Shown piece by piece: positions 59,483 to 61,519 of a stretch of DNA of 64,000 bases (positions are counted from its first letter, which is position 1; each line of letters begins with the position of its first letter). Both the position numbers and the translations under genes were made by a program. The notes below the pieces were generated by a model that was given only the letters and a program-made list of their open reading frames with translations, did no database searches and was not told the origin of the DNA. This DNA is from Escherichia coli (GTDB lineage: Bacteria > Pseudomonadota > Gammaproteobacteria > Enterobacterales > Enterobacteriaceae), in the NCBI RefSeq assembly GCF_003334815.1, contig NZ_QOWO01000001.1, one strand, 5' to 3'.

Positions 59483-61519
59483 ATGGTACCCTCAACATTT
59501 TCTCGTTTGAAAGCCGCGCGTTGTCTGCCTGTTGTTCTGGCAGCCCTGATTTTCGCCGGTTGTGGCACCCATACTCCCGATCAGTCCACTGCTTATATGC
59601 AGGGCACGGCGCAGGCTGATTCTGCCTTTTATCTTCAGCAGATGCAGCAAAGCTCTGATGATACCAGGATCAACTGGCAATTACTCGCCATTCGTGCACT
59701 GGTGAAAGAAGGTAAAACCGGGCAGGCGGTTGAGTTGTTTAACCAACTACCGCAAGAACTGAACGATGCTCAGCGTCGCGAGAAAACACTGCTGGCGGTA
59801 GAGATTAAACTGGCGCAGAAAGATTTTGCTGGCGCGCAAAACTTGCTGGCGAAAATCACACCTGCCGATTTAGAACAAAACCAGCAAGCGCGTTACTGGC
59901 AGGCAAAAATCGATGCCAGCCAGGGGCGTCCTTCCATTGATTTACTGCGCGCGTTAATTGCTCAGGAACCGCTGCTTGGCGCGAAAGAAAAACAGCAGAA
60001 TATTGATGCCACCTGGCAGGCGCTCTCCTCCATGACTCAGGAACAGGCGAATACGCTGGTGATCAACGCCGACGAAAATATTCTGCAAGGCTGGCTGGAT
60101 CTGCAGCGCGTCTGGTTTGATAACCGTAACGATCCCGACATGATGAAAGCCGGGATCGCCGACTGGCAGAAACGTTATCCGAACAATCCGGGCGCGAAAA
60201 TGCTGCCAACGCAGTTGGTTAACGTAAAAGCGTTTAAACCAGCCTCGACCAACAAAATCGCCCTGCTGTTGCCACTGAATGGCCAGGCAGCGGTATTTGG
60301 TCGCACTATTCAGCAAGGCTTTGAAGCGGCGAAAAATATCGGCACTCAGCCAGTGGCAGCTCAGGTAGCTGCCGCACCTGCCGCAGACGTAGCTGAACAA
60401 CCTCAGCCGCAAACCGTGGATGGCGTTGCCAGCCCGGCACAAGCCTCGGTTAGCGATCTGACCGGTGAACAGCCTGCAGCCCAGCCGGTGCCTGTAAGCG
60501 CCCCGGCGACAAGCACCGCAGCGGTAAGCGCACCCGCAAATCCATCCGCAGAGCTGAAAATCTACGATACCTCATCACAACCACTTAGCCAGATCTTAAG
60601 CCAGGTTCAGCAGGATGGCGCGAGTATTGTGGTCGGTCCGTTGCTGAAAAATAACGTTGAAGAGTTGCTGAAGAGCAACACTCCGCTGAACGTACTGGCA
60701 CTGAACCAGCCGGAGAATATCGAAAATCGCGTCAATATTTGTTACTTCGCGCTTTCACCGGAAGACGAAGCGCGCGATGCAGCGCGTCATATTCGTGACC
60801 AGGGTAAACAAGCGCCGCTGGTGCTGATCCCACGCAGTTCATTGGGCGATCGCGTAGCCAATGCGTTTGCGCAAGAGTGGCAGAAACTGGGCGGCGGCAC
60901 CGTTCTGCAACAAAAATTTGGTTCCACCAGCGAATTACGCGCGGGTGTTAACGGCGGTTCTGGTATTGCTTTAACGGGTAGCCCGATTACTCTCAGAGCG
61001 ACAACCGACTCCGGCATGACGACCAACAATCCAACGCTGCAAACCACGCCAACCGATGACCAGTTCACCAATAATGGCGGTCGTGTCGATGCGGTGTACA
61101 TTGTGGCAACGCCGGGTGAAATCGCTTTTATCAAACCGATGATCGCCATGCGTAACGGTAGCCAGAGCGGTGCAACGCTGTACGCCAGCTCCCGCAGTGC
61201 GCAAGGGACCGCTGGCCCGGATTTCCGACTGGAGATGGAAGGCTTGCAGTACAGCGAAATCCCGATGCTGGCAGGCGGTAATCTACCGTTAATGCAGCAG
61301 GCACTCAGCGCGGTGAATAACGATTATTCACTGGCTCGCATGTATGCGATGGGCGTCGATGCCTGGTCGCTGGCAAATCATTTCTCACAAATGCGCCAGG
61401 TTCAGGGTTTTGAAATCAACGGTAATACCGGAAGCCTGACGGCTAACCCGGATTGCGTGATTAACAGGAACTTATCATGGCTACAGTACCAACAAGGTCA
61501 GGTAGTCCCCGTCAGTTAA
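59483..61519 (+). CDS. lpoA: Outer-membrane lipoprotein LpoA, activator of PBP1A (678 aa)
   Basis: Internal ATG at 59483; lipobox LIFAGC; TPR-like N-terminal region and an Ala/Pro/Gln-rich linker. Confidence 0.9.

Follow-up and report, generated by a model that had tools for sequence, protein, structure and literature searches.

YraN proteins have been described by Hardy et al. (bioRxiv 10.1101/2024.02.06.579203, latest version January 2026) as PD-(D/E)XK ssDNA endonucleases required for natural transformation. In Legionella, Acinetobacter, and Vibrio, the ComM helicase is an interaction partner of YraN, and YraN is epistatic to it; the evidence for the YraN-ComM pair, all from species other than E. 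coli, consists of two-hybrid, epistasis, and phylogenetic co-occurrence data. In the same work, the Legionella protein showed Mg-dependent nicking and ssDNA endonuclease activity, abolished by E50A, and yraN was found to adjoin comM in 34% of the genomes that have both genes. A PNAS 2025 paper (PMC12012524) cites YraN as a transformation-specific nuclease working with ComM, and the motif of the family has been described as ID-EVK (PMC1189080). For overlapping gene pairs, termination-reinitiation has been reported to require genes that overlap by 1-4 nt or lie a very short gap apart (PMC10666635).

We analyzed a 64,000-nt stretch of E. coli DNA, referred to here as the window, in which yraN lies between lpoA and diaA. 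An earlier note on this DNA had claimed a 43-nt out-of-frame overlap between lpoA and yraN at 61477-61519, a yraN start within the 3' end of lpoA with its own Shine-Dalgarno (SD) sequence, and a gene string lpoA-yraN-diaA-dolP. The overlap is present in the sequence and has the same coordinates in RefSeq, an ATG at 61477 is accompanied by AGGA at 61466-61469, and the gene string is real, with an order that is kept widely across species. The features are the following, in window coordinates:

58558..59418, minus strand: rsmI, the divergent neighbor of the operon (ORF list and RefSeq)
59483..61519, plus strand: lpoA coding sequence, 678 aa, with ATG at 59483 and stop TAA at 61517-61519 (ORF list and RefSeq)
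61462..61464, plus strand: stop TAA in the yraN frame, which shuts the frame 12 nt 5' of the ATG (direct reading)
61466..61469, plus strand: AGGA, SD of yraN, made of AGG (LpoA R662, 61466-61468) and the A of the following codon, 7 nt 5' of the ATG
61477..61479, plus strand: yraN start ATG, whose A is the third base of LpoA Ser665 (TCA) and whose TG is the first two bases of Trp666 (TGG)
61477..61519, plus strand: the 43-nt out-of-frame lpoA/yraN overlap, encoding YraN residues 1-14 and LpoA residues 665-678
61477..61872, plus strand: yraN coding sequence, 131 aa, PD-(D/E)XK nuclease of the UPF0102/YraN family (Pfam, TIGR00252, and fold matches)
61621..61629, plus strand: codons for E49-I50-D51, first half of the catalytic motif (E49 and D51 invariant in a 70-sequence alignment)
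61666..61674, plus strand: codons for E64-V65-R66, the (D/E)XK half, with R for K as in most relatives (70-sequence alignment)
61892..62482, plus strand: diaA, GTG start, 20 nt past the yraN stop (NF008138, 444.7 bits)
62492..63067, plus strand: dolP, formerly yraP (ORF list and RefSeq; NF008247, 324.6 bits)

The lpoA-yraN overlap is an already known arrangement, both annotated and evolutionarily conserved. We hold with high confidence that yraN is separately initiated on the lpoA-yraN-diaA-dolP transcript, that the overlap is a by-product, and that the product is a PD-(D/E)XK ssDNA endonuclease. Ribosomes would begin at AUG 61477, directed by the AGGA 7 nt upstream, and both signals would be embedded in the coding sequence for the conserved LpoA C-terminus, with the AUG drawn from the invariant Trp666 codon and the AGGA from the AGG of Arg662. 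This C-terminus aligns with the very end of two H. influenzae LpoA structures, 3CKM and 5KCN. The 14 YraN residues encoded by the overlap would constitute a disordered leader ahead of the nuclease core, and since such a leader would be dispensable, the overlap would be a by-product of start placement rather than a shared functional module.

This reading depends on the position of the yraN start. ATG 61477 is the first and sole ATG, GTG, or TTG between the frame stop at 61462-64 and the conserved YraN core, and yraN codons 15-23, which lie past the lpoA stop (ACC ACC AAA CAG ACC GGC GAT GCG TGG), include neither a canonical nor a near-cognate start. Helix 1 of YraN begins at residue 16 and is followed by the invariant G20/E24 (AlphaFold model and alignment). 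With no alternative start before the first helix, a misannotated start codon does not account for the overlap. In shuffled sequence, AGGA-N5-9-ATG occurred ~33 times per 128 kb, which corresponds to ~0.005 expected in one frame over the 55-nt open stretch, making it unlikely that the yraN AGGA and ATG would come together by chance.

The view that the overlap is nevertheless an annotation artefact, with the true yraN start 3' of the lpoA stop after a short gap or within a 4-nt overlap, draws on the frequency of mis-called starts among long overlaps, on the ~four-fold rarity of 10-60 nt overlaps relative to short ones (PMC10666635), and on the observation that most YraN relatives begin near E. 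coli residue 15-17. Serratia and Pectobacteriaceae have a second possible yraN start in a 4-nt overlap with the TGA stop of lpoA, and YraN proteins from these groups are present at NCBI in both 130/131-aa and 117/118-aa forms. However, the E. coli lpoA stop is TAA, which makes this second candidate site TTA, and the next candidates, CTG at L31 and ATG at M54, would remove helix 1 together with the invariant G20/E24. In addition, the SD and start of yraN are kept across genera via a rare codon. We judge a start downstream of the lpoA stop to be very improbable. In the supplements of initiation-profiling and N-terminomics papers, searched for direct start evidence, yraN/b3148 was not found. Taken together, sequence and conservation unambiguously predict the yraN start at ATG 61477, and the long overlap, as correctly annotated, should not be "repaired" by shifting that start.

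Conservation of the arrangement was seen at several depths. The RefSeq coordinates of the overlap were identical in every E. coli genome examined, and a 76-nt stretch with the overlap region was found in 5,424 of 5,426 complete E. coli genomes (~5,425 contain the region). The AGGA, ATG, and TAA were retained in the most divergent E. coli allele sampled and also in E. albertii. Using a genome scan for yraN loci seeded with a 12-sequence alignment, we found the same 43-nt overlap in 36 Enterobacterales loci, where the start site is ATG, GTG, or TTG, mostly with AGGA at 7-nt spacing. A conserved LpoA Trp codon (Trp666 in E. coli) supplies the TG of this start; the LpoA residue that precedes the Trp varies among S, T, N, P, V, I, and A. 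LpoA R662 is encoded by AGG in 31 of the 41 loci with the overlap geometry versus 0 of 23 without it (Fisher p=7e-10, a value that, like the start-codon statistics, counts related species as independent and is uncorrected for phylogeny), and AGG makes up ~1.5% of the other lpoA Arg codons.

The geometry varies outside this group. Pectobacteriaceae have the same overlap geometry with CTG at the start site, indicating that a canonical start is not strictly required there. Yersinia, Rahnella, Photorhabdus, and Providencia have kept the genes and lost the overlap, with spacers of 30-360 nt that include ERIC-like repeats, and in Pasteurellaceae the lpoA-yraN junctions measure -5 to 0 nt. Within the overlap, synonymous divergence of LpoA was 0.47, compared to 0.45 upstream. 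Because these values are equal, the YraN tail adds no constraint, and without excess conservation in the overlap we reject selection on the YraN N-terminal tail. The locus thus provides a clean, small example of overlapping-start evolution, in which a conserved Trp codon has become a start and a rare synonymous Arg codon a ribosome binding site, with the resulting extra YraN peptide unconstrained.

The mode of yraN initiation is most likely de novo, SD-dependent, and weak, and elongating lpoA ribosomes probably occlude the yraN start site. With 40 nt between the yraN start and the lpoA stop 3' of it, termination-reinitiation is unlikely; in coupled pairs, the stop/start distance is -4, -1, or up to ~+6. 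A fold of the RNA from 61437 to 61546 had an MFE of -27.9 kcal/mol (z=-0.07 versus shuffles) with no unusual structure around the yraN start, and on this basis an RNA structure that sequesters the ribosome binding site as a coupling switch was rejected. An internal promoter for yraN was likewise rejected, since a scan with the sigma-70 consensus found none near the lpoA 3' end (2 matches in 4.9 kb versus 3.5 expected). Sigma-E promoters have been reported upstream of dolP (PMC7806268). In the window as a whole, rnpB was the sole Rfam match and no tRNAs were found.

It has to be considered whether the overlap instead serves termination-reinitiation coupling, fixing the YraN:LpoA ratio and linking the nuclease with envelope and replication functions. 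The rsmI<>lpoA-yraN-diaA-dolP order is conserved across 80 species (nearly all 80 loci have rsmI ahead of lpoA) and is kept across Gammaproteobacteria and some Betaproteobacteria; the intergenic distances within the operon are short (ORF list, RefSeq), and the Pasteurellaceae junctions would be compatible with coupling. However, reinitiation efficiency collapses past very short distances (PMC10666635), far below the 40 nt that separate the yraN start from the lpoA stop, and the lineages with spacers in place of the overlap retain both genes. An LpoA-YraN complex is implausible given that LpoA is exported as a lipoprotein whereas YraN is a cytoplasmic protein, and where yraN adjoins comM, as in 34% of genomes with both (Hardy et al.), it has that neighbor instead. 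Furthermore, an overlap-encoded tail that is disordered and unconstrained leaves the overlap itself without protein-level coupling. We consider coupling improbable, and the link that the earlier note implied between YraN and peptidoglycan synthesis, replication timing, and outer-membrane integrity found no support beyond the conserved gene order.

A second way to connect the two proteins would be a programmed -1 frameshift in the overlap that yields an LpoA-YraN fusion. The yraN frame is indeed -1 relative to lpoA and open from 61465, and one 160-aa database protein, P0004, combines PF02021 with PF04348, the LpoA family. However, this protein occurs on one contig, for which a frameshift mutation or a mis-call is the simplest reading. 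An X XXY YYZ slippery heptamer is absent from 61465-61519, and the RNA fold reported above shows no significant downstream structure. A fusion would also export a cytoplasmic nuclease via the Sec/Lol lipoprotein route, and the dedicated SD and start of yraN are under selection. Lacking both the heptamer and a stimulatory structure, the frameshift fusion was rejected, and its probability is negligible. Separate initiation of yraN at ATG 61477 is consequently the reading that we carry forward.

The assignment of YraN as nuclease-like, also made in the earlier note, was borne out, with family profiles, fold matches, and alignment confirming a nuclease fold and catalytic residues. Residues 24-114 match Pfam PF02021 (E=1.2e-24), and the protein scores 202.8 bits against TIGR00252 (cut-off 69.05) and 144.8 against NF009150 (cut-off 81). 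Fold matches identify a minimal alpha-beta-beta-beta-alpha-beta fold that is restriction-endonuclease-like. In the 70-sequence YraN alignment, no variation is seen at E49, D51, E64, or V65, and R66 is kept in at least 90% of the sequences, such that the PD-(D/E)XK motif E...(I/L)D...E-V-(K/R) is intact in E. coli YraN. The AlphaFold model has a mean pLDDT of 88.7, with coil over residues 1-15 and pLDDT values of 65-72 for the first twenty residues, and from this model the 14 overlap-encoded residues are predicted to be a disordered tail. The family comprises 14,761 representative relatives, and the main protein cluster has 2,288 members of 131 aa. Membership of YraN in the Hjc family was rejected: the Pfam scan gave no Hjc match, with UPF0102 plus weak NERD and Vsr matches as the only ones, and identity to archaeal Hjc/Hje is 13-18%.

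The statement in the earlier note that YraN function is unknown is outdated, given the ssDNA endonuclease needed for natural transformation in other species (bioRxiv 10.1101/2024.02.06.579203). The cognate helicase gene in E. coli is yifB, i.e., comM, located outside the 64-kb window, and coevolution of E. coli YraN with YifB has been predicted. By homology, E. coli YraN would act with the ComM helicase (YifB) by nicking the displaced strand of D-loops made by RecA/DprA, and such nicking would stabilize or extend recombination of the incoming ssDNA. We infer that E. coli YraN is a ComM/YifB-partner nuclease, an activity shown in other species and mainly in a preprint. YraN can accordingly no longer be listed as a protein of "unknown function", nor as a Holliday-junction resolvase; in other species, and mainly on preprint evidence, it is a ComM-associated nuclease acting at transformation D-loops.

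E. coli is not readily transformable. Consistent with this, one could suppose that its yraN is a decaying or untranslated relic in a species that is not naturally transformable in the laboratory, as the predicted weakness of yraN initiation and the non-canonical CTG start of some lineages might suggest. However, yraN retains a complete 131-aa ORF whose catalytic residues are invariant, ~5,425 of 5,426 genomes carry the region, and the size of the family and of the main 131-aa cluster also speaks against decay. Moreover, the thermosensitivity of a yraN::kan strain was complemented by plasmid-borne yraN (PMC5828445). A relic is thus highly improbable. Competence control of yraN was also rejected: the CRP-S pattern (TGCGA-N6-TCGCA, up to 2 mismatches) had 31 matches in the window versus 44 expected, below the chance level, and none was placed as a yraN promoter.

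The overlap has a practical consequence, since the first 43 nt of yraN are also the last 43 nt of lpoA and a deletion or insertion there damages both genes, and Keio-based screens may be confounded. In the standard Keio deletion of yraN, the retained ATG is joined to the FRT-kan priming site ATTCCGGGG..., which puts a TGA into the lpoA frame and would truncate LpoA. This deletion would therefore also be an lpoA lesion, with LpoA losing W666-S678, 13 conserved residues at its C-terminus. Gene overlaps are not a topic of the Keio update paper. Among the factors in Lpp+21 synthetic lethality, yraN has been described as 'the only cytoplasmic factor' beside lpoA, lpoB, mrcA, and mrcB, and the lethality ascribed to yraN may be an lpoA effect. 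We put forward tentatively, at somewhat less than an even chance, that the Keio yraN deletion is an lpoA lesion, that envelope-type "yraN" phenotypes may be lpoA phenotypes, and that the true yraN phenotype has never been cleanly tested. If so, the phenotype of E. coli yraN itself would presumably reflect a ComM/YifB-dependent role in ssDNA recombination.

Compared with known systems, E. coli YraN shares with the UPF0102 family the single-domain minimal PD-(D/E)XK fold and the E...(I/L)D...EV(K/R) residues. The characterized YraN proteins are those of Legionella pneumophila, Acinetobacter baylyi, and Vibrio cholerae, and RPA0323 (PDB 3FOV) is the structural representative; the E. coli protein differs from them by its 14-residue N-terminal tail encoded within lpoA, and its gene sits in the lpoA-diaA-dolP operon, not beside comM. 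The archaeal Hjc/Hje enzymes (PDB 1GEF, 1OB8, 2WCW), at merely 13-18% identity to E. coli YraN, are dimers that resolve four-way junctions, whereas Legionella YraN is a monomer that nicks dsDNA and cuts ssDNA with relaxed specificity. A functional analogue is CoiA (PF06054, Bacillota, RadA-associated), likewise a PD-(D/E)XK nuclease paired with a branch-migration helicase at transformation D-loops (Hardy et al.). However, CoiA belongs to another family, carries additional zinc-finger and C-terminal regions, acts structure-specifically on 5'-tailed ss/dsDNA junctions, and has a phylogenetic distribution anticorrelated with that of YraN (Hardy et al.). As a gene arrangement, lpoA-yraN resembles the co-directional overlapping pairs of Huber et al. 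(2019, 2023) in being same-strand and out of frame with the downstream SD within the upstream coding sequence. It differs in its length, 43 nt versus the dominant 4 or 1 nt of the surveyed pairs and beyond the termination-reinitiation range, and in its phase (43 mod 3 = 1), which is the rarer one among long overlaps according to that survey (PMC10666635).

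The earlier note had described a 43-nt out-of-frame overlap between the 3' end of lpoA and the 5' end of yraN (61477-61519), and this is correct as written: open reading frames and RefSeq coordinates agree, and yraN lies in the -1 frame over the 43 nt that it has in common with lpoA. Two further E. coli genomes, one of them with the most divergent allele sampled, have the 43-nt overlap in their annotation as well. Being already annotated in RefSeq, the overlap is a known feature. yraN also has, as claimed, its own Shine-Dalgarno inside lpoA, an AGGA at 61466-61469 located 7 nt upstream of the yraN ATG.

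Features of the window
~5100-10250: CS1-type fimbrial operon, placed by collinearity with NZ_CP025859.1
33985-34361, minus strand: rnpB (RNase P RNA, class A), Rfam, 318.6 bits
58558-59418, minus strand: rsmI, from the ORF reading of the window
59483-61519, plus strand: lpoA, ORF with TAA stop at 61517-61519; same coordinates in RefSeq
61477-61872, plus strand: yraN, 131-codon ORF from ATG 61477; "YraN family protein" in RefSeq
61892-62482, plus strand: diaA, GTG start; same coordinates in RefSeq
62492-63067, plus strand: dolP, ORF; same coordinates in RefSeq

The lpoA frame is open from TTG 59453 (688 aa) and the RefSeq start is ATG 59483 (678 aa); the LpoA signal peptide and lipobox fit the shorter, 678-aa form. 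Other co-directional overlaps are annotated in the collinear NZ_CP025859.1 (locus L082; window offset ~9 nt), all of them short. At 43 nt versus 1-11 nt for the others, lpoA/yraN is the longest co-directional overlap in the region.

Other co-directional overlaps annotated in NZ_CP025859.1 (L082 positions)
~6218: fimbrial genes, 4 nt
~13960: yqjE/yqjK, 11 nt
~41115: prlF/yhaV, 1 nt
~45248: agaW/agaE, 11 nt
~46575: agaF/nagA, 4 nt

In NZ_CP025859.1, a CS1-type chaperone-usher fimbrial operon (CfaE/CblD-like tip adhesin, usher, major subunit, and chaperone) is located between exuT and exuR. These two genes are presumably adjacent in K-12; if so, the window would come from a chromosome that is not K-12-like in this part. 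An Rfam scan of the window gave no match besides rnpB. This gene directly adjoins rsmI in Yersinia, Photorhabdus, Providencia, and relatives; in E. coli, an insertion of ~24 kb with gar, aga, and yra genes separates the two.

Long gene overlaps are a classic sign of a mis-called start. The yraN frame is shut by TAA at 61462-64, and the first ATG, GTG, or TTG after it is ATG 61477. The codons 3' of the lpoA stop in the yraN frame (ACC ACC AAA CAG ACC GGC GAT GCG TGG) contain no canonical or near-cognate start. Downstream, the first possible starts are CTG (residue 31) and ATG (residue 54), and since initiation at either would delete helix 1 and the family-invariant G20 and E24, we rejected both, leaving ATG 61477 as the sole route to a complete YraN core. 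In the AlphaFold model (mean pLDDT 88.7), residues 1-15 are low-confidence coil and helix 1 begins at residue 16, while most of the 14,761 relatives found among 1.84 billion representative proteins are 115-125 aa long, with alignments that begin at E. coli residue 15-17. Thus, YraN residues 1-14, encoded in the overlap, represent an N-terminal extension before the conserved core. In shuffled window sequence, AGGA-N5-9-ATG occurs ~33 times per 128 kb, which comes to ~0.005 chance occurrences for a single frame of the 55 nt that are open. We consider the start at ATG 61477 to be well supported.

Gene order and overlap state were read by a tblastn-based analysis at 80 loci, one genome per species, from Enterobacterales to Vibrio, Aeromonas, Pasteurellaceae, Xanthomonadales, and some Betaproteobacteria. 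The order rsmI<>lpoA-yraN-diaA-dolP is present in nearly all gammaproteobacterial loci, bearing out the proposed lpoA-yraN-diaA-dolP string; conserved gene order around yraN was noted earlier in papers on DolP and on Neisseria GmhA. At 36 loci, the overlap geometry is identical and yraN has a canonical start in the equivalent place; these include Escherichia, Citrobacter, Enterobacter, Kluyvera, Phytobacter, Siccibacter, and Cedecea as well as Pantoea, Erwinia, Hafnia, Edwardsiella, Budvicia, and Serratia. Within E. coli, a 601-nt region was found in 5,425/5,426 complete genomes and the 76 nt spanning the overlap in 5,424/5,426; AACAGGAA(G/C)TTATCATGG plus the TAA stop is kept in E. albertii and in the E. 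coli allele that diverges most among those sampled.

The overlap is lost, with spacers of 5-360 nt, in Yersinia, Rahnella, Rouxiella, Photorhabdus, Xenorhabdus, and Providencia. In Yersinia thracica (L044 3680-4040), the spacer carries three tandem ERIC/IRU-like repeats of ~127 nt each, the last of which supplies the AAGGA ribosome-binding site of yraN; shorter spacers are present at L022, L029, L030, L035, L038, and L055. We therefore conclude that repeat insertion destroyed the 43-nt overlap in these lineages. Junctions in Pasteurellaceae are mostly -5 to 0 nt, and Vibrio and Aeromonas differ again, with overlaps of 14-86 nt according to the start chosen. With geometry and ORF intact, CTG occupies the yraN start in Pectobacteriaceae (L026, L033, L034, and L039, at locus position ~4001; Dickeya, Pectobacterium, and Brenneria) and in one other locus, L025 (position 2954). 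In the junction alignment, the Dickeya yraN ORF has no canonical start. NCBI YraN proteins of Pectobacteriaceae genera include both 131-aa and 118-aa versions, the latter starting at an xTG that shares 4 nt with the lpoA TGA stop. This second start was rejected for E. coli, where the site reads TTA and is unusable.

The junction alignment indicates how the start is assembled: for its x, the yraN start codon xTG takes the last base of the LpoA codon that precedes an invariant Trp, and its TG comes from the TGG of that Trp. The preceding LpoA residue can be S, T, N, P, V, I, or A, yet the third base of its codon is A, G, or T in 36 geometry-keeping loci and C in only five, those with CTG. The Shine-Dalgarno comes from LpoA Arg662, whose codon is AGG with AAC before it and AAG after it. 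Of the loci with the overlap geometry, 31/41 have AGG here, versus 0/23 loci with an alignable LpoA tail and no overlap, all of which use CGN (Fisher p=7e-10, without phylogenetic correction); AGG accounts for only ~1.5% of the other Arg codons of these lpoA genes. This codon usage is good evidence that the yraN ribosome-binding site is under selection, which in turn argues that initiation happens at 61477. LpoA synonymous divergence is 0.47 inside the overlap versus 0.45 upstream, and thus the YraN tail adds no detectable constraint. Conservation of the LpoA tail extends to Haemophilus, and the tail is part of the crystallised domain (3CKM, 5KCN). Of the two proteins, LpoA is the one under constraint, with the YraN leader as a passenger.

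We found no significant RNA structure around the yraN start (z=-0.07), no sigma-70-like promoter in the lpoA 3' end, and no enrichment of CRP-S-like competence sites. Termination-reinitiation coupling from lpoA to yraN is unlikely, since it requires 1-4 nt overlaps or very short gaps (PMC10666635) and the lpoA stop is 40 nt 3' of the yraN start. YraN would therefore be made by Shine-Dalgarno-dependent de novo initiation on the operon mRNA. With lpoA ribosomes translating through the site, such initiation is probably inefficient. Other genera often have GTG, TTG, or even CTG at this codon, and this would fit a nuclease needed at low levels.

The Keio design of Baba et al. 2006 reportedly keeps 50 nt through the target ATG, then joined to ATTCCGGGGATCCGTCGACC. 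In a simulated Keio-type yraN deletion (window 61430-61479), the lpoA frame runs ...TTA TCA TGA across the junction. With this design, a standard yraN deletion would cut LpoA after S665, with loss of 13 conserved residues, W666-S678. A Keio-based synthetic-lethality screen using Lpp+21 listed lpoA, lpoB, mrcA, and mrcB together with yraN among its hits; in its authors' words yraN was "the only cytoplasmic factor", and they put it down to a recombination artefact (PMC8824477). Collateral damage to lpoA is a simpler account and may be why yraN appeared beside these genes. A finding that speaks against extending this to other phenotypes is that a plasmid copy of yraN at least partly complements the thermosensitivity of yraN::kan (PMC5828445). 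The residual value of the overlap is this caveat on deletion alleles, beside its use as a worked example of a start and ribosome-binding site built from LpoA codons.

The nuclease-like assignment of YraN is confirmed by matches to Pfam PF02021 (E=1.2e-24) and NCBIfam TIGR00252 (202.8 bits versus a cut-off of 69) and by conservation of catalytic residues E49, D51, and E64-V65-R66 in the family alignment, which correspond to the ID...EVK motif assigned in 2005 (PMC1189080). As for the proposed link of yraN to lpoA, diaA, and dolP, the gene order is conserved, but a functional tie to peptidoglycan synthesis, DiaA, or DolP is not supported. The earlier reading of lpoA-yraN is thus partly supported: Shine-Dalgarno, overlap, synteny, and nuclease fold hold, and the implied functional linkage and "function unknown" do not.

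The latter is outdated by a reported role in transformation. Hardy et al. (bioRxiv 10.1101/2024.02.06.579203, latest version January 2026) recovered yraN from transformation Tn-seq screens in Legionella and Synechococcus. In Legionella, Acinetobacter, and Vibrio, null and catalytic mutants retained only 0.5-5% of transformation, plasmid uptake was unaffected, and purified Legionella YraN was monomeric, nicked supercoiled DNA, and cleaved ssDNA (bioRxiv 10.1101/2024.02.06.579203). A PNAS 2025 paper (PMC12012524) cites YraN as a transformation-specific nuclease acting with the helicase ComM, and a coevolution study had earlier predicted an interaction of E. coli YraN with YifB, the E. coli counterpart of ComM. 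By orthology with these proteins, the transformation function of YraN may carry over to E. coli.
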